Assembly: GCA_046290225.1 (NCBI GenBank)
Contig: JBKAGE010000051.1
Location: 1-64,000, forward strand
Direction of reading: 5' to 3'
DNA from: Bradymonadia bacterium
Lineage (GTDB): Bacteria > Myxococcota_A > Bradymonadia > UBA7976 > UBA1532
Length of the DNA: 64,000 nucleotides
The notes under the pieces are model-generated. The model was not told the DNA's origin and searched no databases. It saw only the letters and a list, made by a program, of their open reading frames with translations. The position numbers and the translations under genes are program-made. This document shows positions 3,009 through 50,116 of the stretch, piece by piece (the first letter of the stretch is position 1; every line of letters begins with the position of its first letter).

Positions 3009-3617
3009 TCAGTCCAATGCCACTGCCAGGAACCGCTCTTCGTCTTCGATCGATACATTGATGAGATCTGAGAGCCCCACAGAGTCCCAGGTCCCCACGG
3101 CTGCTGTGCCCGGCAGCTTTCGCTGAGAGCATGCGTAGAGATACAGCCCCCAGAGGCGCGCCGTGAGCGGGGCGTCGAAGCGGAGGATCCCTCGGCTCAC
3201 CCCAGTGGCCGTCATCGGGTCGAGCTGCGTCGAGAGCCGCATCAGGTAGCCCTGCTCCTCTTGAGTGAGAAAGGTGCCAGCAGGGGGCGTCTCGCCGGCG
3301 TTGCGCCAGCGGTGGCTCACCGCCAGGGCGCCCGGAGAAGGCGTCGCCAGTACTCGGGCCAGCTGCCCCGACGTCACCGAGGGGCGACCCAGGCAGACGA
3401 TGAAGGGCCCCATGAGGGCAGAGCCCAGAGCGAAGAGGCTGTGGATGTCGTTCGGCCCCCGGTGCCCCGACCGGATCACGTTGTGCACCCCCTTAGGTGT
3501 CGGGCCGGCAGCGCCCACACGGATCACCGTGTCGATGTTGTGGCTCGACAGCGCCTCGAGCAGGGGGGTCAAGTCGTGATCCGAGGCGTGGGCCTCGTCG
3601 ATGAGGATGGCTTTCAT
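3009..3617 (-). CDS. Hypothetical protein, possibly a degenerate nucleotidyltransferase (NTP_transferase-like) fold
   Basis: Start moved to ATG 3617, overlapping the upstream stop (ATGA). MKAILI start and 'NDIHSLFALGSALMGPFIVCLG' resemble sugar/choline-phosphate cytidylyltransferases, but GxGxR is absent. Confidence 0.5.
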   Translation of the reverse strand: MKAILIDEAHASDHDLTPLLEALSSHNIDTVIRVGAAGPTPKGVHNVIRSGHRGPNDIHSLFALGSALMGPFIVCLGRPSVTSGQLARVLATPSPGALAVSHRWRNAGETPPAGTFLTQEEQGYLMRLSTQLDPMTATGVSRGILRFDAPLTARLWGLYLYACSQRKLPGTAAVGTWDSVGLSDLINVSIEDEERFLAVALD

Positions 3618-4432
3618 AACGGCTCCTCGCCGGGGGACTGCGCGGCGTTGGGGCGACCGAGTTTCCAGATGATGGTCACCACCGATTGCGCCACATAGAG
3701 AGCATGTACGGCGGCGTAGGCATACACAAAAATCGCCATCTGCCCAAGGGCCGCGAAGATCGGCAGCGTCGCCGGATACTGACTCACCAGCCGGGCGAGG
3801 GCCTTGACGGGCCACAGAGGTCCCGAGCGCTGGCTTGCCTCACCGGCGGCCTCACCGTGTTTGAGCGGGGTGGTGCCCGTGGCCCGGGCGTATTCCGGGC
3901 TGCGGAGGAAGTGGGTGATGAACAGGGCTCCGGGCACGATGACCAGCGTAATCAGGCCCACCCAGAGGGCGTACTCTCCGCCGCCTTCGTGCAGACGCCA
4001 CCGGGCGCAGAGTGTGCCCACCAGCAGCAGGGCCTTCAGCTCGTCCATCAAGAAGTCGAGCAGGCCCCCCGCCTCCGAGGTGCGGCCGGTCAAGCGCGCC
4101 AGCTGACCGTCGGCGCAGTCGAGGATGTAGCTGAACTCGATGAGCAGCACACCGAGGGCCAGGCCCCAGGGGCCAGGCCAGAGCAGGAGCGGCAGCGCCG
4201 AGATCACCATCACCGCCATGGAGATCAGCGTCACCTGGTTCGGGGTGATGGGGGTCCGGGCGAACAACCAGACCCAAGGGGCCGCCAGAGGTCGGGCGAT
4301 GTAGAGGTTGAACAGCGAATCCGCGGGCTTGAGGCTGTTGCGGTAGATGCGGCGGATCTCGGCGAGCACGGCTTCTCTGGGGGGTGATGGGGTCGCTCCG
4401 ACATATGCCTGCACAGGCGGAGCGGGGGGCAC
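3614..4432 (-). CDS. CDP-alcohol phosphatidyltransferase family membrane protein
   Basis: ITPNQVT and signature DCADGQLAR..G..S..GGLLDFLMD; several TM helices. Confidence 0.9.
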   Translation of the reverse strand: MPPAPPVQAYVGATPSPPREAVLAEIRRIYRNSLKPADSLFNLYIARPLAAPWVWLFARTPITPNQVTLISMAVMVISALPLLLWPGPWGLALGVLLIEFSYILDCADGQLARLTGRTSEAGGLLDFLMDELKALLLVGTLCARWRLHEGGGEYALWVGLITLVIVPGALFITHFLRSPEYARATGTTPLKHGEAAGEASQRSGPLWPVKALARLVSQYPATLPIFAALGQMAIFVYAYAAVHALYVAQSVVTIIWKLGRPNAAQSPGEEPL

Positions 4433-4442
4433 TATGGCCCAC

Positions 4443-6716
4443 TCACCGGGGTGCGTACAACACCCCCCCGACGAAGACCGTCACCGGGCCTTCGAGGGCA
4501 TCTGCAGAGGCGGGGAGCCAGCGCCGGAGGCCACCGGTGACGGACATGGCCCACGGGGCGCCCTCGAAGGCAGGGTAGGGGCCGGCGACGTAACGAGGTT
4601 GCCAGCCGATCGACGTGGTGGCGCCGGCCACCGAGAAGCCGGACTCGCTCCACAACAACACACGGCCGTTGGCCAGCAGCGGCACACCTGCTGGGGCGGG
4701 TGGCAGGCCCAGCTGGGCGAGAGGACCCTCCACTGCGATGAGCCCTTCGCTCTGAAGCACCAGATGCCCTGCGACGAGGCTGGCCGAGACACCTGTCTCT
4801 CTCTCGAGGGTATTGATGGCAGCGATGAGGGCGCCATCTGCGTCGTCGGCCAGCACCTCGGTGGCGGGCACCATCACAGCGTTGATCATCAGGCCTTCGA
4901 GGAGGCCCTCGGTGATGGCCTGTGCGCCTCGCAGATGGCTGAGAGTGGCCGAGGCCCACACACCCGTCATAGGCGCTCGGGCGTTGATGAGGATCGCTTT
5001 GTCGGCGGCGCTGCGCGCAGCGCCTGCGCCGATGGGCACCCCGTTGATCACGAGGCCCTCGGTGAGGGGTCTCGGGGGCACCTCGTCTCCGGTGGCCGCC
5101 ACGGGCGCAGACCACTCGGCGACGTCGTACCACTGGTGGGTGTCGAGCCCTGGGGCGTGCTGACGTAGCTCGAAAGGCTCAGGTGACCAGAGCCACAAAC
5201 TGCCGGTGTGTGCACCACGACTCAACCCCGTGATGCCTGCGGCTTGCCCGGCCGCTTCGATGACGACGTCAGTACCGTCTGGCGCCACCAGCGGGATCAG
5301 CCCTCGAGCGTCTCCTGGGGCCCAGACACCCGTCTCTGCAAAGCGACGCACGAGGGTGTCCGTCAGGGTGAGATCGGCATCACCAGTAGTGACATCGAGT
5401 GGATCCAGCCGAGCGCCGTTGATGGCCAGGGCGTCTGCTGCGTCGAGGGTGCCGCCGAGCACTGGGCCTTGTGGCACCACTGTGGGCCCAGGCCATGCGC
5501 GAACACCAGTGGCCTCAGCGTGGGCGTTGATCAGCTGCGCTTGCTCCAGAGCTGAGCTCGCGCCTTCGATGTCTACACCGTTGATGGTCAGCGCCACATC
5601 ATGCCAGCGGCCGCTCTCTGGCGCTGGCAATGTGGCCAGGGCGCCACTCTGCGGTGGGCCGGAGGGGGTCGCCCCGTCAGCGATGTAGAGCCCGTCGACG
5701 AAGCCGCCTGGGGGCACCACATGGGTCAAGTCGCCGAGCTGCACCAGGGCCCCGATCTGCTCGCTCGAGAGGTCGGGGCACGGCGACTCACCCGGAGAGA
5801 GCGCCACGCTGAGCTGGGTGTCGGTCCAGAGATGGGCGCTCTGTGTGATCTCGAAGGTGCCGCCTTCGGTGGGCAGAGCAGGCGCCGCCCATCGCTCGGC
5901 GAGGGCGCACTGCCCATGACCGTCGCAGACCTCCAACGAGACGAGATGGGGCGCCCCCACAGGCAGCTCGGCTTCGAGGGTGGGCCCCAGGCCTGCGATG
6001 ACGCCATCGACCGACCACGTGTGCACCAGGCGATCGCTGCACAGGTCCCCCTCGCCCATGTCACGGAGAGTGATTGCGCCTGCTTCGCACCCTTGCGCCA
6101 CCGGGAACAGCTCACCGCCAATACGGGCCTCGGGCGGCGTAGTGTCTTCGACGTGCACCACCGTGCTCACCGCAGCTCGGCGGCCATCGTAGGCCTCGAT
6201 CTCCAGGGTGAGCACGTGGCGGCCCACAGGCAGCTGCGCTGTGGGATCACAGCGGGCCTCTATGGCCACCGGGCCCCGCCACTCGAAGCGGGCGATGGGC
6301 TCTTCGGTCTCACAGGCGTCGAGCTGCACCCGCGCGCCGTTGGCGCCTGTGCACTCGACATGCATCGTCTCGAGGGCAGGTGGCCTCAGGGGTGCCACGG
6401 CGCAGTCGCCGAGCTGGGTATGATCGAAATCAGGGAACTCTGCGTCAGGGATCTCCATGTCGGGGGGCGCGGCGTCTGGGACGTCGACATCGGCAGGTTC
6501 AGCGTCCGCCGACACACCCGCATCATGGTCAGGGCGTTGTGGATCGTCGTCGCCTGCGTCGGCACCTCCACCCCCGGAGTTCGGGCCGAGATCGGTGTCA
6601 GTGGGGATGGTGCCCGGAGTGGCGTCGCTGGGGCCGGGCCCCCCTCCGCTCACACCATCTTCACAGCCCCAAGCCAACAGAGCGCAGAGGAGAAGGGCGC
6701 TGAACTCAAGGCGCAT
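4443..6716 (-). CDS. Lipoprotein: acidic linker, two PKD/Ig-like domains, duplicated flagellin-like outer-domain modules
   Basis: Start at MRLEFSALL (6716) with lipobox LAWGC; PDAAPPDMEIPDAEFPD linker; LPVGRHVLTL/LPVGAPHLVSL Ig-like repeats; repeated LTINGV/LAINGA/LVINGV and 'DDADGALIAAINTLERETGVSAS'. Confidence 0.75.
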   Translation of the reverse strand: MRLEFSALLLCALLAWGCEDGVSGGGPGPSDATPGTIPTDTDLGPNSGGGGADAGDDDPQRPDHDAGVSADAEPADVDVPDAAPPDMEIPDAEFPDFDHTQLGDCAVAPLRPPALETMHVECTGANGARVQLDACETEEPIARFEWRGPVAIEARCDPTAQLPVGRHVLTLEIEAYDGRRAAVSTVVHVEDTTPPEARIGGELFPVAQGCEAGAITLRDMGEGDLCSDRLVHTWSVDGVIAGLGPTLEAELPVGAPHLVSLEVCDGHGQCALAERWAAPALPTEGGTFEITQSAHLWTDTQLSVALSPGESPCPDLSSEQIGALVQLGDLTHVVPPGGFVDGLYIADGATPSGPPQSGALATLPAPESGRWHDVALTINGVDIEGASSALEQAQLINAHAEATGVRAWPGPTVVPQGPVLGGTLDAADALAINGARLDPLDVTTGDADLTLTDTLVRRFAETGVWAPGDARGLIPLVAPDGTDVVIEAAGQAAGITGLSRGAHTGSLWLWSPEPFELRQHAPGLDTHQWYDVAEWSAPVAATGDEVPPRPLTEGLVINGVPIGAGAARSAADKAILINARAPMTGVWASATLSHLRGAQAITEGLLEGLMINAVMVPATEVLADDADGALIAAINTLERETGVSASLVAGHLVLQSEGLIAVEGPLAQLGLPPAPAGVPLLANGRVLLWSESGFSVAGATTSIGWQPRYVAGPYPAFEGAPWAMSVTGGLRRWLPASADALEGPVTVFVGGVLYAPR

Positions 6717-9003
6717 CGTGAGCCTCCTCGCTGTGGAGGGTGGCCCGTACACCCCCGAGGTACAGCTCGATCTCCAAGGGCCCTTGGAGAGCCTCGGGCA
6801 GAGGTGGATGGTGGGTGAAGGTCACATGGCCGCCATCGGCGATCTCCACAGACCACGGCGCTCGGATGACTGGTTGAGTTGCGAACACGGTCGACGCGCT
6901 CCATCCGATGGCCTCGGCGTCACCTGCGATCTCGAAGGTGGAGGCGCTCCACAACATCACCGCGCCGGAGGCGATCTCGGGGAGGGCGTCGAATCCCAAC
7001 GCCTGTACCGGGCCTTCGAGCTGGATGTTGTCACCTTCAGGGGCGATCAAGCTGAGATGCCCTTGGGCGTTGAGCGTGCTGGTCACCCCCGTCTCGTCGC
7101 TGTGGGCGTCGATGGTCTGTAGCAGGGCGCCGTCGAAGTCTCCGGGCAGGATGCGGACCGCGGGCAGCTGCACCCCGTTGATGATCAGTCCTTCCACGGG
7201 CTCAACGTCGCCGGCGATGGGGCCAGGTGCGTCGAGGCGAGCGGCGGTGGCAGAACTGTGCACACTGGTGAGGGCCGAAGCGCCTTCGACGAGGCGGCTC
7301 ATCTGGCGCGCGCTCGCGGCAGGCGCCGCCGCGGGGATGGCCACGCCGTTGAGCATCAGGGCCTCGCTCTCCAGCGGCCGGCTCGCGTTGATGGTGGTCC
7401 CAGCGCGGGCGCTGGGCGCATCCCAGTTCGAGGGGGTGATGTGTCGCCGCTCGGCGCCCTCGCCGAGGGTGAAGCTCTGGGGTGACCAGAGTACGAGCTC
7501 ACCTCGAGCCACGCGCTCTCCGACTGGGAGCCCGGTGATGCGCCCTGCTGCCTCGTCGACATTCAGCGTGAGGGCGCCTCCATCGAACCTGACCAGTCGC
7601 CACGGCCCTGGGCCATCTGTGAGCAGGGTCACGCCGTCGAGGGTGTGTAGAGCGGACCACAGGGTGCCATCGGCGTCTTGTGGCTCGACGGCCAGCCCGG
7701 TGAGGGCCTCGTCATCCACCATGGCCTGCATCTCCGCGGTGACCTCGCCGCCTTGTGGTGGCCCTGCGAGCGGCACCACGGCGGGGGTGGTCCAGGCGGA
7801 GACGCCCGTGAGCAGGGTGACGGCGTTGATGGCCTCTGCCTGGGCCGCAACCGAGGCCTCGGCGTCCACTGGGAGTCGATGCCCGTTGATGACCAGCTCA
7901 CCGTCGACTGTCGATAGATGGGTGAGGGCGCCCTCGCCGATGAAGGCCTGTCGACGGGCCTGCTCGGGTTGGAAGGATGCGCGGTGTGCGCCGCGCATCT
8001 GAGCACCCTCGGGTGGGATGTCGAAGGTGATGCCGTTGATGGCGACGAAGCCGCCGAGCGACACGATCTCGTCCAGATTGCCACCGCATGGGCCTTCGAG
8101 TCGGCCGCTCACCTGCAGCGCCTCATCTTCGAGGGCGGGTCGCCAGGGCCGGGCGTCGAGGGGCTCTGGGGCAGCGAAGGCCCGGCCGACCCACTGGCGA
8201 TCTGTCGTGCATTGCCCCGAAGGATCACAGGCTTCTACGGTCACCTGCCTGAGCCCGCCAGCCCGCAGATCGATCTGCGCAGCGCCTGTTTCCATGTCGA
8301 GGGGCTCGTCGTCGAGCCACCATCGGTAGCTGAGCAGCTCAGCGCAGCGATCACCTTCCCCCACGTCCCAGAGCGAAATATCAACGCGCCCGCCACAGGT
8401 CTCGGGCTCCACGAAGCGCGCTTCAGTGGTGAGGCGCACGTCTGGAGGCTCTTCGTCGACGATGGCGATCGTGGTGCGCCCCACCGCCGATCTGCCGTGG
8501 GGATCCGTGAGGGTGACGCTGAGGTCGTGTTGCCCCACAGGCAGCCGGACCATGGGATCACATCGCTGAGGCATCTCCACCGGGCCTGACCACTCGATGG
8601 TCTCGATCACCGCCTCGGCATCGATGGCCGCGCAGATGTCGAGCGCGATCTCGGCGCCCCACGGACCCTCACAGGCCACGGTGATCGCAGGGAGCTGGGG
8701 GGCCTCGGGGGGATCGGGGAGCTGAGGTGCGTCGATGGGCGGGCAGTCACGCTCGCACTCTACAGTTGTGCCCTGATCCAGGGTTGTTTCGACACTGGCG
8801 TCATCCTCCGTGGAGCCTGCGCCAGGCACGCCAGCATCACCGGCAGGTGTGATGGGATCAGCAGGGCCCTGGTCAGCGGCTGGATTGCCACTCTGGGCGC
8901 CATCGGAGCACGCAGTGAGGGTGAGCAGGCCAGCACAACACAGAGCGGCCCAATATCGAGGGGCCCCATATCGAGGATCTGAGCGGAAAAGGTGGAGGTG
9001 CAC
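6706..9003 (-). CDS. Lipoprotein paralog of 4443-6716 with PKD-like and flagellin-like modules
   Basis: Likely GTG start at 9003; lipobox LTAC; colinear with its neighbour (CDP..LPVG.H, DVGEGDRC, AQAEAINAVTLLTGVSAW, FDGALLQTIDAHSDETGVTSTLNAQGHLSL). Confidence 0.75.
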   Translation of the reverse strand: MHLHLFRSDPRYGAPRYWAALCCAGLLTLTACSDGAQSGNPAADQGPADPITPAGDAGVPGAGSTEDDASVETTLDQGTTVECERDCPPIDAPQLPDPPEAPQLPAITVACEGPWGAEIALDICAAIDAEAVIETIEWSGPVEMPQRCDPMVRLPVGQHDLSVTLTDPHGRSAVGRTTIAIVDEEPPDVRLTTEARFVEPETCGGRVDISLWDVGEGDRCAELLSYRWWLDDEPLDMETGAAQIDLRAGGLRQVTVEACDPSGQCTTDRQWVGRAFAAPEPLDARPWRPALEDEALQVSGRLEGPCGGNLDEIVSLGGFVAINGITFDIPPEGAQMRGAHRASFQPEQARRQAFIGEGALTHLSTVDGELVINGHRLPVDAEASVAAQAEAINAVTLLTGVSAWTTPAVVPLAGPPQGGEVTAEMQAMVDDEALTGLAVEPQDADGTLWSALHTLDGVTLLTDGPGPWRLVRFDGGALTLNVDEAAGRITGLPVGERVARGELVLWSPQSFTLGEGAERRHITPSNWDAPSARAGTTINASRPLESEALMLNGVAIPAAAPAASARQMSRLVEGASALTSVHSSATAARLDAPGPIAGDVEPVEGLIINGVQLPAVRILPGDFDGALLQTIDAHSDETGVTSTLNAQGHLSLIAPEGDNIQLEGPVQALGFDALPEIASGAVMLWSASTFEIAGDAEAIGWSASTVFATQPVIRAPWSVEIADGGHVTFTHHPPLPEALQGPLEIELYLGGVRATLHSEEAHDAP

Positions 9004-9067
9004 GGCAGCCTCACGGCGCAGAGGTACAGATCTGCACCATCGGCATCGAGGCTGCCCGAGATTGAGG

Positions 9068-14910: not shown

Positions 14911-16317
14911 TCAATTCACGCCCTTGATGTTGGCCACGGGATACAACCGTCGGGAGACCTCGGCTATGCCTTCGTCTACCAGCACCTGCAGAACCGCGTC
15001 GAGATCCTTGTAGACGTGACCACACTCGTCGAGGGGGGTGCGATCGGTGTTGCCCACGATGCCAGTGATACGCACCCCGCCGAGCGTGCGGGTCAGCGTG
15101 CGCATCTCGTGGTCGATCTCGTCGTGGCGGTGTTTCAGCTCCTTCTTTGCGGCGCTTCGGCTCAGATGGCGCCCGGAGCCGTGATTCACCGAGTTGCCCG
15201 AGCGGGTGGCCCCGTGCTTCGGGAACAAGATCGCCGCCCCGGCGAGCATCGAGCCCGGAATCAAGATCGGGTGGCCCGTCTTCTCCCATTTGGTCTTCTT
15301 CAGCGCCGGGTGCCCCGCGGGGAAGGCCCGGGTGGCGCCCTTGCGGTGTACGAAGCCCTGGGTGGTGCCGCCGCCGGGCAGCAACAGGGTCTCTTCTTGT
15401 ACGAGGTTGTGGCTGATCTCGTAATACACCTCGAGATCAGCGCCGAGGGCTTCTCGGGTGGCCTCGCGGACCCGCTGCACGATGGTGTGGCGGTTGGCGA
15501 TGGCGTAGTTGGCGGCGCTGTTGTGATACGCCCAGTATCGTTGACCCATGGGCTCGTCGATGTAGAGCCACGACTCTTCTCGACGGTGTGCCGGCAACCC
15601 CCGAAGGCGGGCCCCCTCGTAGAAGAAGTGGTTGGCAGTCTGCCAGCCGTACCCACGTGATCCGCAGTGCACCATCACCCAGACCGAGCCGTCGGCCTCG
15701 TCGATCTGCAGCTCGATGAAGTGGTTGCCCCCGCCCACCGAGCCCAGCTGAGGCCGGGCTTTCTGATAGGCCTTGGGGATCCGGTGCAGATCCATGTGCT
15801 CGGGCACTTCGATGTAGTGCCGCTCGCACAACGACGAGGACACACCCAGAGCCCGAGCGCCATAGCGCAAGATGTCGTTCACCTTGCGCTTGCTCGCCCC
15901 CCGGGCCAGCGGAGGCCGGTGGTTGCCGACCCCGGTGGCCACGCGCTGCTCGACGGCGTCGACCCAACGGGACCGCGTGCTCCACTCGACGAGGTCGCTG
16001 GCGTGCAGGGTGGGGGCCCGCATGTAGACCACACCACAGGAGATGTCGTAGCCACTCCCTGCCTGGACCAGGGTGCCGTCGGTGACCAGCACCCCACCCA
16101 CGGGGATGCCGTAGCCGATATGGCAGTCGGGCATGAGGTACAGCCCCTTGGCCCCAGGGTAGCTCGCCGCCTGGGCGGCCTGCTGCCACAGACCCTCGTC
16201 GGTGCGATCGAAGAGATCGTCGCTGAGGAAGGCGTGTACGTCACAGCACATATTGCCCCGCTTCGGGAGCACGTGATGCTGATCGCTCACGCGATCGGTC
16301 GAATATTTGAGAGACAT
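14911..16317 (-). CDS. rtcB: RtcB-family RNA ligase
   Basis: MPDCHIGYGIPVGG, GYDISCG, LGSVGGGNHF, VHCGSRG, ISHN, HRKGATRA, PGSM, NHGSGR, YKD. Confidence 0.95.
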   Translation of the reverse strand: MSLKYSTDRVSDQHHVLPKRGNMCCDVHAFLSDDLFDRTDEGLWQQAAQAASYPGAKGLYLMPDCHIGYGIPVGGVLVTDGTLVQAGSGYDISCGVVYMRAPTLHASDLVEWSTRSRWVDAVEQRVATGVGNHRPPLARGASKRKVNDILRYGARALGVSSSLCERHYIEVPEHMDLHRIPKAYQKARPQLGSVGGGNHFIELQIDEADGSVWVMVHCGSRGYGWQTANHFFYEGARLRGLPAHRREESWLYIDEPMGQRYWAYHNSAANYAIANRHTIVQRVREATREALGADLEVYYEISHNLVQEETLLLPGGGTTQGFVHRKGATRAFPAGHPALKKTKWEKTGHPILIPGSMLAGAAILFPKHGATRSGNSVNHGSGRHLSRSAAKKELKHRHDEIDHEMRTLTRTLGGVRITGIVGNTDRTPLDECGHVYKDLDAVLQVLVDEGIAEVSRRLYPVANIKGVN

Positions 16318-27348: not shown

Positions 27349-29625
27349 TCAACGCGCCCGGAAGACCTGGCTTTCCCAGCCGAAGGAGGCGCCACCACCG
27401 GTGAAGATGGCGAGGCGGACCTGTACGGGGAGGATGTACGACGCGGCGATGCCGTTGAGGCTGTTGCTGTTGATGCTGCTCTGACCGGTGACGATGGAGT
27501 TCGCCGCCGTCGTGTGCCAGAGGTAGTGCGCCGATGCGGAGCCGCCCTGAGGCCACGAGCCGCTGCTGCCGCCGCACTGCCCGTCCTCACCGGGCGTCAG
27601 CAGGAACCACGTGCCGGCCTCGTTCTGGATGTAGACCTCGTGGCCGCCGCCGCTGCCGTTCTGGAAGTTGCCGTTGTCGTCGTCCGAGGTGGTGGTCACC
27701 ATGCGGGTGTCCACGCTCAGCTCGGTGAGCTGGGTGCGCAGAGCGCTGATCTCGGCGGCGCTGTACGTGGACCCGTTGGCGGGGTTTTCGTACGTCAGGG
27801 TCCGGTAGAGATCGTGGCTGCCGTTGGGGGAGCTGTCTGCAGAGACAGAGCCTTCGCTGATCCAGTCGTAGTGGGTTGCCGAGTCGTCGGCGCATTTCCG
27901 CCACGGGTTGCTGCTGTGATACTCGGCGACGATGATGTCCTGACTCTCCGTTGTGGAGAGGCGCACCCAGCCGCCGCCGTCGGTGGTCATGTCGCAGTCG
28001 ACGATGAAGGGATCGACGCCGCCGAGGCCATCAGGGTCGATGGTGTAGAGGCCGTCGCCGATATTGTCCACGTAGGCGTAAGGCTCTTCAGGGGGGTTGC
28101 GGTAGTCGGCGCAGCTGGCGGCGTAGGTGTTGTCCGCCCACTCCCGAGCGCCCGTGTCGATGTCGATGATGAGCCCGGTCTCGCAGTCCCCAGGCACGTT
28201 GGCTTGAGGCGCGAGATCAGCAGCAACGTTGACACACTCACCGACAGTGACGTTGCCGCAGACGCGGGTCTCGCAGGTCTCCACACCGAGCTCGACGCCG
28301 GCGCCGATGGTGCTGCCCTCGCCGATGGTGCTGTCGGGGAACACGATGACGTTGTCCTCGAAGGTCACGTCGTTGCCCACGTCGGCGCCGTCACGGATGA
28401 GCACGCCGGCGCCCACAGTGACGTCATTGCCATAGGTGCTGCGAGGCCACAGGCGGCTGTTGTCACCCATGTTGAAGCCGGTGCCGATGGTGACCTGCTC
28501 GTCGATGATGCAGTCGAGCCCCACAGTGGCGCCGTCACCAACGTTGCTGCGGAACAGGACCACGCTGTTGGCGCCAATGGTGCTGTTCGCCCCCACGGAG
28601 GCCCCGTCGTACACGGTCACGTTGCCCATCAGCTGGGTGTTGGCACCGATGTTCGAGAAGAGGCTGATGGTGGATCCGGTGTGCATGCGCGCGCCATCAC
28701 CGACGATGCTCTGGTTGCCGGCGAAGGTGTTGTCGTCGAGGGTGACGTTGTTGCCCAGAGTACCGCGGACCTCGACGTTGGCGCCGAGGGTGACCATGTT
28801 GCCGGCGTTGGCTCCGGAGGCCAGCTGAGAGCCGGCGCCCATCATGAAGTCGTCGCCGATGGTGTTGTAGTTGTGCAGCGTGCTGTCGTTGCCGAGGGTG
28901 GCGCGGTGGCCAATGAGGCTGTTGGGTCCGATGATCACCCGCTCGCCGGCGATGAAGTCGTCACCGGCGGTGGTGTTGCTGGCGATCTGAGTGCCGGTGC
29001 CGAGGGCGGCGCGATCCCCGATGATGGTGTTCGAGCCGATGTTGGTGTTGTCGGGTACGGTGCCGTCAGCCCCGATGCGCGCCAGGGCGCCGAGATCGAC
29101 GTTGTTGCCGATGGCGGTGTCGTCGCCGATGACGACGTTGTTGCCCACGGTGCTGTTGGCGCCGATGGTGACGCCACTGCCGAGCTGTACGCGGATGCCC
29201 ACGGAGGTGCCTGCGCCGATGCCGACGTTGTCGCCGATGACGGCGGCGTTGCCCACAGAGGCACCGAGGCTCACGGTGCTGCCGGCGCCGATGGCGGCGG
29301 AGCTGCCCACGTTGCCATTGACCACGCTGCCCATGCCGATACGGGCGTTTGATCCCACGACGCCGGTGGCACCGATGATGGCGCCGAGCTCGACCTGAGC
29401 GCTGGCATCGATGGTGGCATCAGGGCTCACACAGTCATCGCCGAAGCCGTCGCCGTTGTTGTCCACCTGGTCGACGTTGGACACGGTGGGGCAGTTGTCG
29501 ACATCATCACAGATGGTGTCGCCGTCTTCGTCTGCACACTGGCCCTGTGCCCAAACGCTGGTGCTTACACACATCGTGGCCATGAACACACTTCGGCTCA
29601 TCCATCGCTTCATCGGATTACCCAT
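27349..29625 (-). CDS. Secreted protein: TSP3 repeat + long left-handed beta-helix + fibrinogen-like (CDMxxxGGGW) domain
   Basis: GGAGG precedes ATG 29625; signal ..VWAQ; DEDGDTICDDVDNCP; about 400 aa of [IV]GxxxX hexapeptides; DGLYTIDPDG..CDMTTDGGGW. Confidence 0.8.
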   Translation of the reverse strand: MGNPMKRWMSRSVFMATMCVSTSVWAQGQCADEDGDTICDDVDNCPTVSNVDQVDNNGDGFGDDCVSPDATIDASAQVELGAIIGATGVVGSNARIGMGSVVNGNVGSSAAIGAGSTVSLGASVGNAAVIGDNVGIGAGTSVGIRVQLGSGVTIGANSTVGNNVVIGDDTAIGNNVDLGALARIGADGTVPDNTNIGSNTIIGDRAALGTGTQIASNTTAGDDFIAGERVIIGPNSLIGHRATLGNDSTLHNYNTIGDDFMMGAGSQLASGANAGNMVTLGANVEVRGTLGNNVTLDDNTFAGNQSIVGDGARMHTGSTISLFSNIGANTQLMGNVTVYDGASVGANSTIGANSVVLFRSNVGDGATVGLDCIIDEQVTIGTGFNMGDNSRLWPRSTYGNDVTVGAGVLIRDGADVGNDVTFEDNVIVFPDSTIGEGSTIGAGVELGVETCETRVCGNVTVGECVNVAADLAPQANVPGDCETGLIIDIDTGAREWADNTYAASCADYRNPPEEPYAYVDNIGDGLYTIDPDGLGGVDPFIVDCDMTTDGGGWVRLSTTESQDIIVAEYHSSNPWRKCADDSATHYDWISEGSVSADSSPNGSHDLYRTLTYENPANGSTYSAAEISALRTQLTELSVDTRMVTTTSDDDNGNFQNGSGGGHEVYIQNEAGTWFLLTPGEDGQCGGSSGSWPQGGSASAHYLWHTTAANSIVTGQSSINSNSLNGIAASYILPVQVRLAIFTGGGASFGWESQVFRAR

Positions 29626-29704
29626 CGCTACGTTTGCCTCCATTAGGTCTGATGTGTGTGAAGGTAGCTTATTTTGAGTGGGGGGAGAAGATGGGATTTT
29701 TTAA

Positions 29705-29760
29705 GAGAGTTTCGGGCACGGGCACGGGCACGGGCACGGGCACGAGTTTTACGGATGTGG
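29705..29760. repeat. (GGGCAC)5 dispersed repeat copy
   Basis: GAGAGTTTC(GGGCAC)5GAGTTTTACGGATGTGG. Confidence 0.8.
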
Positions 29761-29761
29761 G

Positions 29762-30019
29762 CAGTGCAGCCTGAGGCTGCATGTCTTGGAGCGAGTGGAG
29801 GTTGGCGTAGCCGGCCGGAGGGAGCGGAAAGACACCCGGAGGGCTGTCCACTGTTTGGCCTGACAGTGCAGCCTGAGGCTGCATGTCTTGGAGCGAGTGG
29901 AGGTTGGCGTAGCCGGCCGGAGGGAGCGGAAAGACACCCGGAGGGCTGTCCACTGTTTGGCCTGACAGTGCAGCCTGAGGCTGCATGTCTTGGAGCGAGT
30001 GGAGGGCGGCGCAGCCGGC
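29762..30019. repeat. 102-bp tandem repeat, about 2.5 copies, each with the palindrome TGCAGCCT-G-AGGCTGCA
   Basis: Units start at 29762, 29864 and 29966; the first two are identical. Confidence 0.9.
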
Positions 30020-30281: not shown

Positions 30282-31850
30282 TCAATGCCGGAAGTGGCGT
30301 GCTCCCGTGAACACCATGGCCAGGCCCAGGCGGTTTGCGGCCTCGATCACCGCCTCGTCGCGGATCGAGCCACCGGGCTGGATGATGCTCGTCACACCTG
30401 CCGCCGCTGCGGCCTCTACCCCATCAGGGAAGGGGAAGAATGCGTCAGAGGCCAGGGCTGCACCTTGCGCCTGCTCGCCAGCGCGCTCTGCCGCGTGGCG
30501 GACTGCGTCCACCCGGTTTGTCTGGCCGCCGCCGATGCCCACCGAGGCCATCACTCCGCCGCCGAGGGGGCGGGCGATCAGGATCGCGTTCGATTTCACA
30601 TGGCGGACCGATTGCCAGGCGAAGGCCAGTGTCGCGTACTCAGATGCTTCTGGGGCGCGCTCGGTGACCACCTTCCAGGCGGCGCGATCGCTCGGGCGGT
30701 GATCCGCCTCTTGTACAAGCATACCGCCGGGGATCGCGCGGAGGTCGAAGCCGTCGAGGGGGCTTGGGCGACGGCCTTCCAGAGGGCGCATTACGCGGCA
30801 GTTCTTCTTCTTGCGGGCCAGCATCGCCAGGGCGCCTTCTGTGAACGAAGGCGCTGCGATCACCTCGACGAAGAGCTTGCCCACCGCCTCGATGAAAGAC
30901 TCGTCCACCGGACGGTTCACGGCCACGATGGAGCCGAAGGCCGACACTGGATCACTTGCCAGAGCGCCCTTGAAGGCTGAGACCGTGTCCGGGCCCGTCG
31001 CCACGCCACAAGGGCTGTTGTGCTTCACGATGGCCACCGCCGGGCCCTCGAAGCCGAAGGGGATCGGCCAGGTCGCGGCCAGATCGAGGGCGTTGTTGTA
31101 GCTTAGGGCTTTCTCGCCCTGCACCATCTCGAAGTACGGCGTGCTCCCCGCCGGTCGGTACACCGCGCCGTGTTGGTGGGGGTTCTCGCCGTAGCGCAGG
31201 GTCTGCACCTGCTCGAGGGCTACATTGATCACTGGGGGCAGGCGTTCAGTTGTGTCCTCGGCCACCGTCGAAGCCATCCAGGTAGAGATCGCCGCATCGT
31301 AGGCCGCCGTGTGGCGGAACGCCTTCAGGGCCATCTTGCGGCGGAAGGCCACCGAGCGGTCATCGTTGGCCTCGAGGCGCAGAGTCGACAGCGCTGCGTC
31401 GTAATCTGCTGGATCACACAACACCGTCACTGACTCGAGGTTCTTCGCCGCGGCGCGCAGCAGGGTCACCCCACCGATGTCGATCTGCTCGATGGCCTCT
31501 GCCTCCGTCACACCTTCTCGAGCGATGGTGTCCGTGAAGGGATAGAGGTTGCAGACCACGAGATCGATGGGGGCGAGCCCGTAGCGCTCGAGCTCACCGA
31601 GGTGCTCTGGCGTGCGGCGGGCCAGCAGGCCTCCGTGGACCGCTGGGTGCAGTGTCTTTACCCGGCCACCGAGCATTGGGGGAAAGCCTGTGAGATCATC
31701 CACCGAGATCACGTCGAAGCCGGCGGCGGCGAGGGCCTTCGCCGTGCCCCCTGAGGCGATCAGCTCGAAGCCCAGCGCGTGCAGGCCGGCACCCAGGGTC
31801 TCGATGTCGGTTTTGTCGTAGAGGCTCAGTAGAGCGCGGCGAGCGGTCAT
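30282..31850 (-). CDS. purH: Bifunctional AICAR transformylase/IMP cyclohydrolase
   Basis: Start MTARRALLS (31850); GRVKTLHP, IDIGG, LRYGENPHQ, KHNSPCG, SDAFFPF, GARHFRH. Confidence 0.95.
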   Translation of the reverse strand: MTARRALLSLYDKTDIETLGAGLHALGFELIASGGTAKALAAAGFDVISVDDLTGFPPMLGGRVKTLHPAVHGGLLARRTPEHLGELERYGLAPIDLVVCNLYPFTDTIAREGVTEAEAIEQIDIGGVTLLRAAAKNLESVTVLCDPADYDAALSTLRLEANDDRSVAFRRKMALKAFRHTAAYDAAISTWMASTVAEDTTERLPPVINVALEQVQTLRYGENPHQHGAVYRPAGSTPYFEMVQGEKALSYNNALDLAATWPIPFGFEGPAVAIVKHNSPCGVATGPDTVSAFKGALASDPVSAFGSIVAVNRPVDESFIEAVGKLFVEVIAAPSFTEGALAMLARKKKNCRVMRPLEGRRPSPLDGFDLRAIPGGMLVQEADHRPSDRAAWKVVTERAPEASEYATLAFAWQSVRHVKSNAILIARPLGGGVMASVGIGGGQTNRVDAVRHAAERAGEQAQGAALASDAFFPFPDGVEAAAAAGVTSIIQPGGSIRDEAVIEAANRLGLAMVFTGARHFRH

Positions 31851-32488
31851 GAGGTCGACTCCTCGAACAGGTTCTCTTGAACATGGTGGGTCGTCGCCAG
31901 AGCCTTGGCGACGGCCTCGACCAGGAGACGGTGCTCGACAGTGCGGATCTGTCCCTCGAGGCCTTTGAGGGTGATGCCGCGAAAGACCGGCACCGTCTCG
32001 GTGCAGAGGGTGGGCCCGGCGTCGACCTCGGGCACCACGTAATGCACCATCACACCCGTGTGATCGATTTGCTTGCGTTGGGCGGCGGCCCACGCGCGCT
32101 CGATGGCGTGGGTGCCCGGGAACGCTCCGGGCAAGGCCGGGTGCAGGTTGATCACGCGCTGAGGGAAGCGATCCAGAAAGGCCACGCTCAGGATGTGCAT
32201 CCAGCCAGCGAGCACCACCAGATCTGGCTGGTGACTGCTCACCAGTCGCGCCAGATCTGCGTCGTACGTGCTGCGGCCTCTGCCGTCCTGTGTGTACGGC
32301 TTCATGGGCATGTACTCTGTGGGGAGTCCCGCTGCCTCGGCCCGTTTCAGGCCATAGGCGCCTCGGCGATTGCTCACCACCACTGCGATCTCGGCGTCGA
32401 GGGTGCCGGTCTCGATGGCGTCGATGATCGCCTGCAGGTTGGAGCCGTTGCCCGAGATCAACACCGCAAGTCGTCTGCGGGGGGTCAT
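31847..32488 (-). CDS. purN: Phosphoribosylglycinamide formyltransferase
   Basis: LISGNGSNLQA, LAGWMHIL, INLHPALP, GVMVHYV..VDAGP. Confidence 0.95.
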   Translation of the reverse strand: MTPRRRLAVLISGNGSNLQAIIDAIETGTLDAEIAVVVSNRRGAYGLKRAEAAGLPTEYMPMKPYTQDGRGRSTYDADLARLVSSHQPDLVVLAGWMHILSVAFLDRFPQRVINLHPALPGAFPGTHAIERAWAAAQRKQIDHTGVMVHYVVPEVDAGPTLCTETVPVFRGITLKGLEGQIRTVEHRLLVEAVAKALATTHHVQENLFEESTS

Positions 32489-32501
32489 GCGTGTTCTCCG
32501 T

Positions 32502-32550
32502 TCACTTGAGCAGCACAGTCATTTCAGAAGCACGGTCATTTCAGAAGCAC
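32502..32550 (-). repeat. Three 17-bp-period copies of the purM 3' end (VLLK-stop)
   Basis: Minus strand: gtgcttctgaaatga cc gtgcttctgaaatga ct gtgctgctcaagtga. Confidence 0.8.
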
Positions 32551-34935
32551 AGGGGGATGATCCCCCCGGGGGATGATCTCGGCCACGACGGCGCCGTCGA
32601 GGCGGGCCCCGGGAGCCCCTCGGCCTGCGGCCATCAGAGTGCTCACAGTCTGTTGCCGATCAGCTGCATCGACGATGACCAGCATACCCAGACCCATGTT
32701 GAAGGTTCGGGCCATCTCGGCCTCCGAGATCTGGCCCAGGCTCTGGAGCAGCTCGAAGAGGGGGGGCACCTGCCACCCGTCGGGCTTGAACTTCATGGTC
32801 ACACCCTCTGGCAGAATGCGGGGCGGATTATCGAGCAGGCCACCGCCGGTGATGTGCACTAGGCCCTTGGGGGTGACACCTGCCGCGATGAGGGCTTTGA
32901 TCTCGTTCAGATAGCAGCGGTGGGGGGCCAGCAGGGCCTGGCCGAGGGCGGAGCCCAGGGTGGGCTCCATGCGGCGTAGATCGCGATCGGCTACGAGGGC
33001 TCGGGCGAGCGAGTAGCCATTGGTGTGCAGCCCCGAAGAGCCGAGGGCCACCACCACATCGCCCACTTCGATGGTCGCCCCGTCGATGATGGCCTCGCGC
33101 TCCACCTGGCCCACGATCGTACCCGCGATGTCGAGCTCTCCGTCGCAGTACACCCCAGGCATCTCCGCCGTCTCGCCGCCGAGCACTGCGCAGCCCACAG
33201 CACCGCACGCCTCGGCGATGCCCTGCACCACCTCGGCCACCTGCTCGGGCACCAGCTTGCTCGCAGCGACGTAGTCCAAGAAGAAGAGAGGCTCGGCCCC
33301 CTGCACGAGGATGTCGTTGATGCAGTGGTTCACCAGGTCGTAGCCCAGTCCTTTGAGCTGGCCCATCTGCGTAGCCACTCGGGTCTTCGTGCCCACGCCG
33401 TCGGTGGAAGCCACCAGCACCGGGTGACGCATGGCCTTGAGCGAGGCGCCGTCGTAGAGGCCACCAAAGGCGCCGACGCCGGCGAGCACCTCGGGACCAT
33501 GGGTGGCGCTCACTGCTGACTTCATGAGGGCCACCGCCTGGTGCCCGGCGTCGATGTTCACCCCCGCGTCGCGGTAGGTCACCGGTCGACGTGGCCCCTT
33601 GCTGAGCTGGGGGGGTCTCGAAGGGCCACCACCGATGTCGCTGCGCCACTGCACGCCGTCGAAGAAGATCGCCCCGAGGCCTGCGTAGGCGCGGTCGAGG
33701 GCCTCTGTCAGGTGGGTGCCGATGCCTGTGATGGCCAGCACCCGACCACCGCTGGTGAGCACCTGATCCGACACCACGCGAGTGCCTGCGTGGAACGCCT
33801 GTACATCAGGCAGACTCTCCAGATCGGAAAGTCCGTGAATCGGGTGTCCTGTGTGAGATTTTGCCGGGTAGCCCGGACTCGCCGCCACCACCGTCGCCGC
33901 GAAGGCATTACGCCACTGCAGGTCGATCTCGTCGAGGCGCCCGTCGAGGCACGCTTCGAAGACCTCCACCAAATCAGAGGCCAGGAGCGGCAAGATCACC
34001 TGGGTCTCCGGATCTCCGAAGCGGCAGTTGTACTCCAGGACCTTCGGGCCATCGACGGTGAGCATCAGGCCGACGTACAAGATCCCCACATAGGGGCAGC
34101 CCGCATCGGCCATGCCCTGCAGGGTGGGTGTGAGGACGGCCTGCTCGATCTGGGCGAGCTGGCTGCTGCTGAGTACGTCTGCAGGGGCGAAGGCCCCCAT
34201 CCCGCCAGTGTTGGGGCCCTCGTCGCGATCTTTGAGGCGCTTGTGGTCTCGGGCGAGGGGCATCACCTTTGCCCGGGTGCCGTCACAAAACGCCAGCACC
34301 GAGATCTCGGGGCCGTAGAGGCGCTCTTCGAGCAGCACGGTGTCACCCGCGTCTCCAAAGGCCCGCTGGTTGAGGATCAGATCGAGAGCAGCCTCTGCTT
34401 CATGGCGGTCTTTGGGGATGATGACGCCCTTGCCTGCAGCGAGGCCCGAAGCCTTCACCACCAGAGGAGAGGCGGTGTCGTGCAGGAACGCCATGGCCTC
34501 GTTGAAGTCACTGAAAGACCACGCCCGACCTGTGGGGATGCCTTGAGACTGCATGAAGCGTTTGGCGTAGGCCTTCGAGCCCTCAAGCTGAGCCGCCGAC
34601 GCCGTGGGACCGAAGCAGCGCAGCCCCGCCTCGGCGAAGCGATCGACGATGCCAGCCACCAGAGGGGCTTCCGGGCCCACCACCGTGAGATCGATGGCCT
34701 CTCGCTGAGCGTAGGCCAGCAGGCCGTCGAGATCGGTGGCCTTGAGGTCGACGTTGACGATGGGGGCCTGCTCGGCGCTGCCAGGGTGTGCGGTGCCGCC
34801 GTTGCCCGGGGCCACGTGGATCTCCGCGGCCTGTGGCGAGTGCGAAAGGGTCCAGGCCAGGGCGTGCTCTCGTCCGCCGCCGCCCACCACGAGGATCTTC
34901 TTTGTCTGCGCGTTTGAGATCGTCTGCACTGTCAT
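32536..34935 (-). CDS. purD-purM: Fused phosphoribosylamine-glycine ligase (PurD) and AIR synthetase (PurM)
   Basis: Start 34935 overlaps the purF stop. PurD: VVGGGGREH, LEGSK, GLAAGKGV, DHKRL, GPNTGGMG, RFGDPETQ. Then in frame, PurM: TYRDAGVNID, STDGVGTK, GGETAEMPG, SSGLHTNG, HITGGG, TFNMGLG. Confidence 0.93.
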   Translation of the reverse strand: MTVQTISNAQTKKILVVGGGGREHALAWTLSHSPQAAEIHVAPGNGGTAHPGSAEQAPIVNVDLKATDLDGLLAYAQREAIDLTVVGPEAPLVAGIVDRFAEAGLRCFGPTASAAQLEGSKAYAKRFMQSQGIPTGRAWSFSDFNEAMAFLHDTASPLVVKASGLAAGKGVIIPKDRHEAEAALDLILNQRAFGDAGDTVLLEERLYGPEISVLAFCDGTRAKVMPLARDHKRLKDRDEGPNTGGMGAFAPADVLSSSQLAQIEQAVLTPTLQGMADAGCPYVGILYVGLMLTVDGPKVLEYNCRFGDPETQVILPLLASDLVEVFEACLDGRLDEIDLQWRNAFAATVVAASPGYPAKSHTGHPIHGLSDLESLPDVQAFHAGTRVVSDQVLTSGGRVLAITGIGTHLTEALDRAYAGLGAIFFDGVQWRSDIGGGPSRPPQLSKGPRRPVTYRDAGVNIDAGHQAVALMKSAVSATHGPEVLAGVGAFGGLYDGASLKAMRHPVLVASTDGVGTKTRVATQMGQLKGLGYDLVNHCINDILVQGAEPLFFLDYVAASKLVPEQVAEVVQGIAEACGAVGCAVLGGETAEMPGVYCDGELDIAGTIVGQVEREAIIDGATIEVGDVVVALGSSGLHTNGYSLARALVADRDLRRMEPTLGSALGQALLAPHRCYLNEIKALIAAGVTPKGLVHITGGGLLDNPPRILPEGVTMKFKPDGWQVPPLFELLQSLGQISEAEMARTFNMGLGMLVIVDAADRQQTVSTLMAAGRGAPGARLDGAVVAEIIPRGDHPPVLLK

Positions 34936-36455
34936 TCGCCCTGAATCTGTTCGAAGGCCAGTTTGCTCTGATCGTCCGAGGTCAGCGCCTCGGGGATCTC
35001 GATGGGATAGTGTCCGGAGAAGCAGGCGCTGCAACGCCCGGAGGGCTGAGCCGGATCGAGAGGCAGGGTGGCCGACATGAGGCCCTCGTGGCTCAAGTAG
35101 GCCAGGCTGTCGGCGCCGATGTGGGCCCTGATCTCTTCGACGGTGTGCCGGTGTCCGATGAGCTCGGCGTGGGTGGCCATGTCCACCCCCATGAAGCACG
35201 GGTGCTTCACTGGCGGTGACGAGACCCGCACGTGCACTTCCGAAGCGCCACCCTCGCGGATCAAGTTCACCAGGGGGCCTACGGTGTTCCCGCGCACGAT
35301 GGAGTCGTCTACCAGGACCACCCGTTTGCCCTCGAGATTGGCCCGGAGGGGGTTGTACTTGAGCTTCACCCCGGTGCGCCGCAGGCGGTCATCGGGTTGG
35401 ATGAAGGTGCGCCCGATGTATCGATTCTTCGTGAGCCCCTCGGTGTAGGGGATCCCCGAGGCCTGGGCATAGCCGATGGCCGCTGGCGTCGCGGAGTCGG
35501 GTACACCCACCACGACGTCGGCTTCGACGGGGGCTTCGGCCCAGAGCTGAGCGCCGAGGCGCTGCCGCACGCCGTGGATGCTCTGCTCCTCAAGGGCGCT
35601 GTCGGGGCGAGCGAAGTAGACATATTCGAAGACGCACAGGGCCCGGCCCTTGGGGGCGCGCCCCTCGAAGCTCTCGAGGCCCCCGTCGCTGATGCGCACG
35701 ATCTCGCCGGGGTGCACCTCTCGGATGTATGTGGCGCCGATGGTGCCCAGCGCGCAGGACTCCGAGGCGATTACGTGGCCTCCGCCAGGGAGGGCACCCA
35801 CACACAGAGGCCTCAACCCCAGCGGATCTCGCACCCCGTAGACCCCGTCTCGGGTGAGGACCACCAGAGAGTAAGCCCCAGCGGTCCGGGCCATGAAGGC
35901 CTTGATGCGGGCCACCCAGTCGGGGCCGTGGGGCTCACCGCCTGCGGGCGGCACCGCGAGCATCTGAGTGATGACCTCGCTGTCGGAGGACGAGGTGAGG
36001 CCGACCCCGCGCTCCAGCAGCTCTCGTCGCAGCTGAGGGGCATCGGTGACGTTGCCGTTGTGGGCCACACCGAGGGGGCCGTGCAGCGTCTCGAAGACGT
36101 AGGGCTGAGTGTTGCGCAGCTTGGGGCTGCCCGTGGTGGAGTATCGGGTGTGTCCGATGCCCAGGTGTCCTTCGAGGGGGGACAGGTTCTGCTCGTTGAA
36201 CACCTGCGTCACCAGGCCCAGCCCCCGCTGAATATATGCCCGTTGCCCGTCACTCGTGGCGATGCCAGCGCTCTCCTGGCCGCGGTGCTGCAGGGCATAG
36301 AGCGCAAAGAAGGTGGTCCGGGCCACGTCGCGATCCCGGGCGTAGATGCCAAAGACCCCGCAGGCCTCCCGAGGGCGATCCAACGTGTCGTCCAGAAGGT
36401 CTGGTGTGGGCTGGTCGCGCAGCCAGGTCTCGCGCAGTCGATCGTGCGGGCTCAT
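34932..36455 (-). CDS. purF: Amidophosphoribosyltransferase
   Basis: Start MSPHD (36455); EACGVFG, LQHRGQESAG, GHTRYST, CVFEYVYFARPDS, VDDSIVRG, CSACFSG. Confidence 0.95.
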   Translation of the reverse strand: MSPHDRLRETWLRDQPTPDLLDDTLDRPREACGVFGIYARDRDVARTTFFALYALQHRGQESAGIATSDGQRAYIQRGLGLVTQVFNEQNLSPLEGHLGIGHTRYSTTGSPKLRNTQPYVFETLHGPLGVAHNGNVTDAPQLRRELLERGVGLTSSSDSEVITQMLAVPPAGGEPHGPDWVARIKAFMARTAGAYSLVVLTRDGVYGVRDPLGLRPLCVGALPGGGHVIASESCALGTIGATYIREVHPGEIVRISDGGLESFEGRAPKGRALCVFEYVYFARPDSALEEQSIHGVRQRLGAQLWAEAPVEADVVVGVPDSATPAAIGYAQASGIPYTEGLTKNRYIGRTFIQPDDRLRRTGVKLKYNPLRANLEGKRVVLVDDSIVRGNTVGPLVNLIREGGASEVHVRVSSPPVKHPCFMGVDMATHAELIGHRHTVEEIRAHIGADSLAYLSHEGLMSATLPLDPAQPSGRCSACFSGHYPIEIPEALTSDDQSKLAFEQIQGE

Positions 36456-36456
36456 C

Positions 36457-37509
36457 TCAGAGGCTCCCGTGATGGCCCTGGAGGGCCGAGGTGAGGGCGT
36501 CGGTGATGCGGGGGGCGGCAGGTTGAGCACCGGGCTCGAAGGGTTGTCCCGTGAGGCCGAGGAAGGCCCCGATGTATCGCCGAGCCACGGCGCGGCGGAG
36601 GTTGGTGGGCAGTGCTGGGGAGGGCCCATCGCCTGTGTATCCTTGCGCTGCGAGCCACTGGCGCAGGTACTCTTTGTCGAAGTGTTCTGGCCCTCGCCCT
36701 TCGGACTGAGCGGCCTCGTAGTCCGCCGCGAGCCAGTAGCGGCTCGAGTCGGGCGTGTGGATCTCGTCGATCAGCACGAGTCGGCCGTCGACGAGCCCGA
36801 ACTCGTACTTCGTGTCCACGAGCAACAGCCCCGCTTCGAGGGCCACCTGTTGCCCACGGGTGAAGATCTCCAGCGCCACGCGTTGCACTTCGGCCCAGAG
36901 ATCAGCATCGAGCAGCCCTCGGCTCACCACCTCGTCGCAGGTGAGGCGTTCATCATGGGCGCCCTCCACCCCCTTGGTGGTGGGGGTGATGACCGGCGTC
37001 GGCAGGGCATCGTTCTTCTTCAAGCCCTGGGGCAGGTCGAGGCCATAAGGTCGATCGACGCCCTGATCGTAGAGGGTCCAGAGCGAGGTCGAGGTCACCC
37101 CGGTGATGAACCCGCGGACCACCACCTCCACCGGGAGGGGGGCAGCGTTCGTCGCCAGGGTGGTGTTGGGATCAGGCAGGCCCAACATGTGGTGATCGAC
37201 CACATCGGCGACGGCCCCGAACCACCACGCGCTCAGCTGATTGAGCACTTGCCCTTTGAGGGGGATGTGCCCGAGTACTCGATCAAAGGCGGAGATCCGG
37301 TCTGTGGTCACCAGCACTCGGCGACCAGCGAAGGGTCCCTCGGTGGGGGCCCAGGCGTCGCGGACCTTGCCGCGTTGTCGAGGGCCGAAGCCTGCTGGCA
37401 AATCGACCCCGGTGAGGGGGGCCTCGAGGGCGAGCTCGATGGCGGCCTCGATTTCAGGGCTCAGAGTGTCACCGGCTGCGAGGGCCTGCAGGTTGATGCC
37501 GTCAGCCAT
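36457..37509 (-). CDS. purC: SAICAR synthetase
   Basis: RGKVRD, TTDRISAFD, KGQVLN, VEVVVRG, TPTTK, VDTKYEFG, DEIHTPDSSRYW, DKEYLR. Confidence 0.95.
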   Translation of the reverse strand: MADGINLQALAAGDTLSPEIEAAIELALEAPLTGVDLPAGFGPRQRGKVRDAWAPTEGPFAGRRVLVTTDRISAFDRVLGHIPLKGQVLNQLSAWWFGAVADVVDHHMLGLPDPNTTLATNAAPLPVEVVVRGFITGVTSTSLWTLYDQGVDRPYGLDLPQGLKKNDALPTPVITPTTKGVEGAHDERLTCDEVVSRGLLDADLWAEVQRVALEIFTRGQQVALEAGLLLVDTKYEFGLVDGRLVLIDEIHTPDSSRYWLAADYEAAQSEGRGPEHFDKEYLRQWLAAQGYTGDGPSPALPTNLRRAVARRYIGAFLGLTGQPFEPGAQPAAPRITDALTSALQGHHGSL

Positions 37510-38929: not shown

Positions 38930-39155
38930 GGGGATGCTCGTCGAGATCGGGCCCCCAGACACTGGGCAGAGATCAGGACGCACGTCACCGCTGAGCAGAC
39001 GTCGCTGATTTCAGGCCTGGGGCGAGTGTGAGTAGGAAGCGGGTCGCGTTCCGGAAGGTCGGGGAGTGCCACTTGGCGGCTCCTCAGCGCGTGCGCTGGC
39101 CGGTCGCAAGGCGTGAGACCCTACGCCCTGAAAAGGCGAAACGCAAGGCACAGAA

Positions 39156-50070: not shown

Positions 50071-50116
50071 GCTCTCCTTTGGTTAGATCGTGGCGTGCCT
50101 TCGAGTTGAGCGCTTG

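Follow-up and report, generated by a model that had tools for sequence, protein, structure and literature searches.

Two overlapping genes on the bottom strand of the analyzed window (64,000 nucleotides of a Bradymonadia contig) encode predicted lipoproteins, P1 and P2, each of which carries two tandem modules of the flagellin outer domain (D2/D3) and none of the flagellin helical core. As comparison with uninterrupted relatives suggests, an older Ig-stalk protein likely received the D2/D3 copies within a loop of its tip domain. Such split-domain D2/D3 lipoproteins are apparently undescribed and form part of a wider reuse of this domain. The features of the gene pair, in window coordinates, are as follows:

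9037..9066, minus strand: weak sigma-28-like site upstream of P2, doubtful (15.2 bits; spacer 16, 2 nt too long)
6706..9003, minus strand: P2 lipoprotein gene, 765 aa, GTG start (ORF; paralog comparison)
8908..9003, minus strand: P2 predicted lipoprotein signal, LTAC, Cys32 (regular expression)
8704..8907, minus strand: P2 acidic low-complexity linker (composition)
8179..8703, minus strand: P2, two PKD/HYR-type Ig domains (alignment to P1; fold modelled in P1 only)
7969..8127, minus strand: P2 split terminal beta domain, N-half, approximate (alignment A6)
7438..7902, minus strand: P2 flagellin D2/D3 module 1, without the R-T..DD..ST loop (55.6 bits, outer-domain HMM)
6904..7380, minus strand: P2 flagellin D2/D3 module 2, without the loop (54.9 bits; PF07196 17.9 bits)
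6739..6852, minus strand: P2 split terminal beta domain, C-half, approximate (alignment A6)
4443..6716, minus strand: P1 lipoprotein gene, 757 aa (ORF; ATG start)
6663..6716, minus strand: P1 predicted lipoprotein signal, AWGC, Cys18 (regular expression)
6402..6662, minus strand: P1 acidic linker (composition)
5874..6401, minus strand: P1, two PKD-type Ig domains (AF2; VIA Z 11.3 to 4tn9)
5682..5825, minus strand: P1 split terminal beta domain, N-half, degenerate (alignment; pLDDT mostly <50)
5112..5603, minus strand: P1 flagellin D2/D3 module 1, without the loop (86.1 bits; 18/18 core positions)
4581..5105, minus strand: P1 flagellin D2/D3 module 2, without the loop (PF07196 25.8 bits; Z 15.6 to 9yh1)
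4446..4559, minus strand: P1 split terminal beta domain, C-half, degenerate (alignment A6; no match with the parents-only HMM)

The P1 start overlaps the P2 stop by 11 nt, GAGGAGG lies just 5′ of the P1 ATG, and the start codon of P2 coincides with the start of a matching library protein record. BLAST aligned the two paralogs at 33% identity across 752 columns (E 5e-88). The first-pass annotation had described overlapping paralogs in which a lipobox and acidic linker are followed by a pair of PKD/Ig-like domains and a pair of flagellin-like modules, with no helical core. This architecture was confirmed, but the description had missed that the modules interrupt a terminal domain and that the same module was recruited to other scaffolds. 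A broken or frameshifted flagellin remnant was ruled out, given the long open frames, a GC3 of 0.76 and the recurrence of the architecture in other genomes. Closely downstream of P1 on the same strand (3012-4432) lie a gene for a CDP-alcohol phosphatidyltransferase and an ORF of 202 aa that has no name; no link between these genes and the lipoprotein family was seen elsewhere.

The modules were identified by profile searches. PF07196 (Flagellin_IN), which had been suggested for this purpose, matched P1 above its gathering score (25.8 against 22.7 bits), whereas the P2 match fell below it (17.9 bits, E 0.0035). An HMM that we built from 48 flagellin outer domains of related genomes detected two modules in each protein (86.1 and 46.8 bits in P1, 55.6 and 54.9 bits in P2, all E≤2.3e-14). 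The repeat is missed by BLAST self-comparison of P1 and P2, and the two modules of P2 are 26% identical. As the first-pass annotation had claimed, D0/D1 termini are missing: neither PF00669 (Flagellin_N) nor PF00700 (Flagellin_C) gave a match at E≤1 in P1 or P2, nor did an HMM of the N-terminal region of the host's own flagellins. The helical termini of FliD (FliD_N, FliD_C) and of the hook-junction proteins were likewise tested in both proteins and none matched. P1 and P2 as a flagellin, FliD or FlgK/L were ruled out on these grounds.

P1 residues 106-757 were modelled with AF2 from an 11-row alignment (mean pLDDT 72.6, pTM 0.46), and in this model the PKD domains were recovered as a pair and both modules were well folded. 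VIA-align matched P1 module 2 to the flagellins FlaB (9yh1; Z 15.6, rmsd 2.6 over 168) and FlaA (9ygu; Z 15.4) of H. pylori, FlaA of C. jejuni (6x80; Z 13.2), FliC of PAO1 (8sug and 8erm; Z 10.8 and 10.0) and p5 of Sphingomonas A1 (2zbi; Z 8.8 over 90 residues). The second PKD domain of P1 matched the collagenase PKD domain 4tn9 (Z 11.3); Pfam PKD gave no match in either P1 or P2. These fold matches stand for P1 module 2 and the P1 PKD domain only. Taken with the outer-domain HMM, they bear out the assignment of the modules to flagellin D2/D3.

Lipobox-like motifs were found by regular expression in both proteins, in agreement with the earlier claim of a lipoprotein signal in place of flagellar export. 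The lipoprotein call combines this motif with hydropathy and is not a SignalP result; the same expression matched in all nine family members checked. D and E make up 26% (P1) and 21% (P2) of the 70 residues after the lipobox cysteine. Such an N-terminus, with a lipobox-like signal and an acidic linker, is common here, a crude scan having flagged it in 186 of 5365 coding-like ORFs. A hydropathy scan found no hydrophobic segment beyond the N-terminal signal in P1 or P2. Both are predicted to be Sec-exported, lipidated outer-membrane proteins displayed on the surface.

The sequence on either side of the modules was traced to a likely intact parent. Five large secreted HYR/PKD proteins of the same family (G006:C9, G008:C246, G014:C2, G017:C405 and G024:C96) share the same last PKD domain, and after it comes a terminal beta domain, so far unnamed, that is uninterrupted. 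In alignment A6, four of these parents align on either side of a gap spanning exactly the modules. An HMM of the five parents matched the four-module homolog P0004 at residues 358-415 (18.2 bits) and 1200-1226 (15.1 bits), the best of 1000 shuffles scoring 3.4, and it found both halves in P0006 (318-357 and 769-819). In P1-P3 this parents-only HMM gave no match to the C-half, which is assigned there by alignment only. Seven further uninterrupted cases, with both halves and no module, were found among 151 library proteins examined. The split domain was left unfolded (pLDDT mostly <60) in two AF2 models, those of P1 and of the G002 core; the latter had a mean pLDDT of 64.2 and folded modules. 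The direction of insertion is inferred from two observations: an intact parent exists, and flagellins widely carry the module. The parent beta domain itself lies near unnamed Atlas clusters (score 0.94, low recognition), which are commonest in Planctomycetota, and stands at the end of large secreted Ig-repeat proteins in L093:8898-9344 and its relatives.

Further members of the family were found. A third paralog, P3 (P0003, 913 aa), lies alone on contig C77 of the host genome. Among the 31 genomes of the order searched, a homolog in G008 (C25) has four modules, and those in G002 (C96) and G024 (C98) have two modules and no PKD domain. Protein searches added P0006 with its cluster, P0030, P0034 and P0037. 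The word-index protein searches, with 1, 7 and 5 proteins returned, overlooked members already known and therefore have no bearing on rarity; Atlas matches for the P0006 core were all under 0.9. The combination of module and scaffold had no match outside family f1 among 401 genomes of the phylum, two candidates being scored per genome. The architecture is patchy in one order of Myxococcota. No conserved gene neighbourhood was seen, two of the contigs being only 5-6 kb, and flagellar genes adjoin no member examined. It had been suggested that the pair is possibly heteromeric; this found no support, since the third paralog is solitary and one scaffold-family member was found per genome in G002, G008 and G024.

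The genome itself offers a likely source of the module. The first-pass annotation had taken the lineage to be probably non-flagellated, which is wrong, even though it had correctly noted that the window holds no flagellar genes (none is annotated among the window ORFs scanned). The host genome (8.58 Mb, 99.4% complete) encodes seven full flagellins with one D2/D3 module each, FlgL, and flhA, fliF and fliA, all three scoring over their cut-offs. It also has a cluster of flgF-G-A-H-I-J-M-K-L, csrA, fliW, fliS and fliD, these being best-match names, some below curated cut-offs; its FliD matches PF07196 at 28.4 bits. Of the order's 31 genomes, 24 carry flagellins (4-17 per genome). Submitters gave the label Myxococcota, Myxococcales or Bradymonadia to several of the nearest full-length flagellin records, and the order is mostly flagellin-rich. 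Since the host flagellins carry the same module, the lineage's own flagellins are the likely donor.

Several side observations were made on these flagellar loci. At the end of one contig of the host genome (L022:11043-16229, G000:C78), three flagellin genes have two tyrosine recombinase-like frames among and next to them, and a class I adenylate cyclase-like gene lies between fliW and fliS in the late flagellar cluster (L019:5916-9029, G000:C75). Giant flagellins occur in relatives (L050, L051, L052, L053, L054 and L055): frames of 913, 1091, 1336 and 1872 aa keep both helical ends, and one of 2269 aa has Flagellin_N and two modules with no Flagellin_C match. In a flagellin array (L063, G029:C7:250000-268000) several genes are broken across two frames, reflecting assembly errors or real frameshifts.

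The window modules differ from those of true flagellins at one conserved place. Each of the six positions of an R-T..DD..ST loop is kept in 44-48 of 48 flagellin modules of related genomes, and the loop is deleted in all four window modules. The module core was retained at 11-18 of 18 positions in the three window modules scored, and homologs in G002, G008 and G024 retain up to six of the six loop residues. The window modules have likely lost a loop that flagellins would need in the filament. Lipoprotein modules of the host genome are 30-39% identical to its own flagellins (32-39% for the window copies), against 40-58% among six of those flagellins. Among themselves the lipoprotein modules are 19-45% identical, with the core kept and surface identity low. 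Deletion of the loop, retention of the core and low identity to the own flagellins make filament contacts and a faithful decoy less likely and suggest a tip domain on a membrane-anchored stalk. A quick-search tree clustered 13 of 15 lipoprotein modules (support 82) on long branches, with terminal branches of 0.8-2.4 where the median is 0.34; short HMM coverage kept the half-module proteins and module 2 of P1 out of this tree. In a comparison of two close members, the modules diverge by 3.0% and 8.3% and the Ig part by 7.3%. The modules have thus not changed faster than the Ig part, and diversifying change is not evident.

The same module was found on other scaffolds. The 151 library proteins (146 new matches and five earlier ones) comprised 106 without the module, 22 that are flagellin- or FlgL-like, and 23 with modules and no strong match to the helical termini. 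The flagellin- or FlgL-like proteins have one to five D2/D3 modules, so that tandem modules occur there too. Ten of the 23 core-less proteins belong to the split-domain family, one is P0007, and the other 12 include fragments and partial proteins, P0028 and P0152 among them, which may be flagellins. P0036 (1452 aa) combines a lipobox and an FGE-sulfatase domain with seven modules, full or partial, in an apparently nested order, and ends in a C-type lectin; modules are joined to a C-type lectin also in fragment P0155. The modules of these two score up to 173 bits, far closer to flagellin than the window modules. P0035, P0114, P0130 and P0172 have an N-terminal anchor, collagen-like repeats, DUF7151 and two to six modules. 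The N-termini of these collagen/DUF7151 proteins presumably resemble Marine Group II archaeal surface proteins, and their loci were not found in two metagenome scans. P0007 and G024:C452 (L150:1498-4158) are lipoproteins with several half-modules separated by Cys-rich spacers. Module copies number two or four in the split-domain family and five to eight, full and partial, on other scaffolds. Overall, the D2/D3 module appears to behave as a mobile surface domain.

We give about an even chance to the reading that P1 and P2 are non-flagellar adhesins bearing flagellin outer domains on the tip of an Ig stalk. D2/D3 domains copied from the lineage's own flagellins would have entered the tip domain of an Ig-stalk protein. 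Sec export and lipidation would anchor the product in the outer membrane, the acidic linker and PKD stalk would display the modules on the surface, and these may bind a surface ligand such as a polysaccharide, a particle or a prey cell. Loss of the near-invariant loop from the window copies and their 32-39% identity to the own flagellins favour an adhesin over a spacer, a tether or a decoy, and other core-less recruits pair the module with a C-type lectin (P0036, P0155) or with collagen/DUF7151 stalks (P0035, P0114, P0130). There are precedents: Sphingomonas A1 p5/p6 flagellins bind alginate at the cell surface (PMC9751261), and Vibrio FlaE/F strengthen the biofilm matrix (PMC8306008, citing Jung 2019). 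Against an adhesin, the alginate site of A1 p5 is placed in the helical and not the beta domain (PMC9751261). The loop-keeping homologs in G002, G008 and G024 and a sigma-28-like site of P3 would also count against it. The motif used to find this site was built from the upstream regions of flagellins, 54 of 90 of which went into it; the site lies at -60 and scores 17.9 bits against a 0.1% background quantile of 16.9, which hints at co-expression with the filament. The motif is unspecific: it scores 17 bits or more at 110 genome sites, and wrong spacers still give 63 and 30.

A filament tether we consider unlikely. The tandem modules would then mimic the end-on-end ridge contact, D3-D2(+11), and so hold the filament of the same cell, or a sheath, at the outer membrane. 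The PAO1/C. jejuni fold polymerises end-on-end through D3-D2(+11) contacts (PMC10256154); several homolog modules retain the loop, the P3 site exceeds the background quantile, and flagellins are present in all four carrier genomes. However, this co-occurrence would be expected by chance in about 1 case in 3 (hand arithmetic), and 20 of the order's 24 genomes with flagellins yielded no module-scaffold fusion. The loop is deleted in the window copies, the site before P2 has the wrong spacer, none was present before four members in G002, G008 and G024, and no examined member lies inside a flagellar cluster.

Similarly unlikely is a passive spacer, in which the module would be a stable rod that, much like an Ig domain, lengthens or stiffens the stalk, with the function residing in the split domain or elsewhere. 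This could account for the variable copy number, for a conserved core combined with low surface identity, and for tandem modules also in true flagellins. However, the last domain holds the modules in one of its loops, so that they would lie at the tip and not in the stalk, and in P1-P3 it is the host domain, not the module, that has degenerated. More doubtful is the capture of flagella, in which predatory Bradymonadia would grab the flagella of prey or kin through the end-on-end ridge contact, D2/D3 having left the filament repeatedly; the departures meant are the split-domain, the Cys-rich and the FGE/C-type-lectin lipoproteins, and the collagen-DUF7151 proteins, which may be archaeal. Least probable is a surface or vesicle-borne decoy that soaks up flagellum-binding phages or predators: the 4-17 flagellins per genome are consistent with pressure on the filament surface and a minor C. 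jejuni flagellin has a phage-defence role (PMC8306008), but a decoy must resemble the current receptor, and the host's lipoprotein modules fall below the identity found among its flagellins; the two close members compared show no sign of diversifying change, and no defence genes flank the window pair.

Among known systems, PAO1-type flagellins (H. pylori, C. jejuni, PAO1) share the outer-domain fold of P1 module 2, and PMC10256154 reports this fold from flagellins of six phyla, Myxococcota included. In contrast to these, P1 and P2 lack D0/D1 helices, have a lipoprotein signal, and carry their modules in tandem inside a foreign domain and without a loop that is near-invariant in the order's flagellins. 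Sphingomonas A1 p5/p6 (PMC9751261) likewise place a Flagellin_IN beta domain on a cell-surface, non-filament protein, but are complete flagellins in which helical domains form both termini, alginate binding to the helical part. Vibrio FlaE/FlaF are flagellin relatives with a non-motility role in the biofilm matrix; they differ in being secreted by the flagellar apparatus and not being membrane-anchored fusions (PMC8306008). FliD, FlgL and flagellins with several motifs share PF07196 or tandem modules with P1 and P2, but keep helical termini, which P1 and P2 do not have; the latter match the flagellin module and not FliD. The secreted HYR/PKD Ig-repeat parents have the same last PKD and terminal domain, theirs uninterrupted and without a flagellin module. 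Tandem PKD/HYR domains after an anchor are common to P1/P2 and Ig-stalk adhesins, PKD being absent in the G002 and G024 members. P1 and P2 likely work like an Ig-stalk surface adhesin. Searches of full-text literature, whose coverage leaves out most subscription papers, found no description of a core-less D2/D3 lipoprotein, in line with the earlier suggestion that the architecture is undescribed.

Domain traffic usually runs in the opposite direction, with foreign domains entering the variable region of flagellin. Here a flagellin outer domain has apparently moved out of the filament into surface proteins whose export by Sec is predicted; related genomes still hold the uninterrupted parent and two- and four-copy forms, and at least three other scaffolds bear the module. 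Soluble core-less proteins make it testable what the widespread ridged D2/D3 domain binds apart from its filament neighbours, and which of its conserved loops serve filament contacts only. An annotation as 'flagellin hook IN motif' does not prove a flagellar protein, and the nearest flagellin records of the class are labelled Myxococcota/Bradymonadia.

Other features of the window were recorded. Three apparently secreted proteins (27352-29643, 41846-43738 and 43964-45229) have long hexapeptide (left-handed beta-helix) repeats; among them there is one fibrinogen-like match and one TSP3 match. In a short ORF at 29672-29953 a stretch of about 35 codons is duplicated in tandem almost exactly. Genes of purine biosynthesis, one of them a GARS-AIRS fusion, occupy 30285-38962 and 48781-50914, and RtcB is encoded at 14914-16317.
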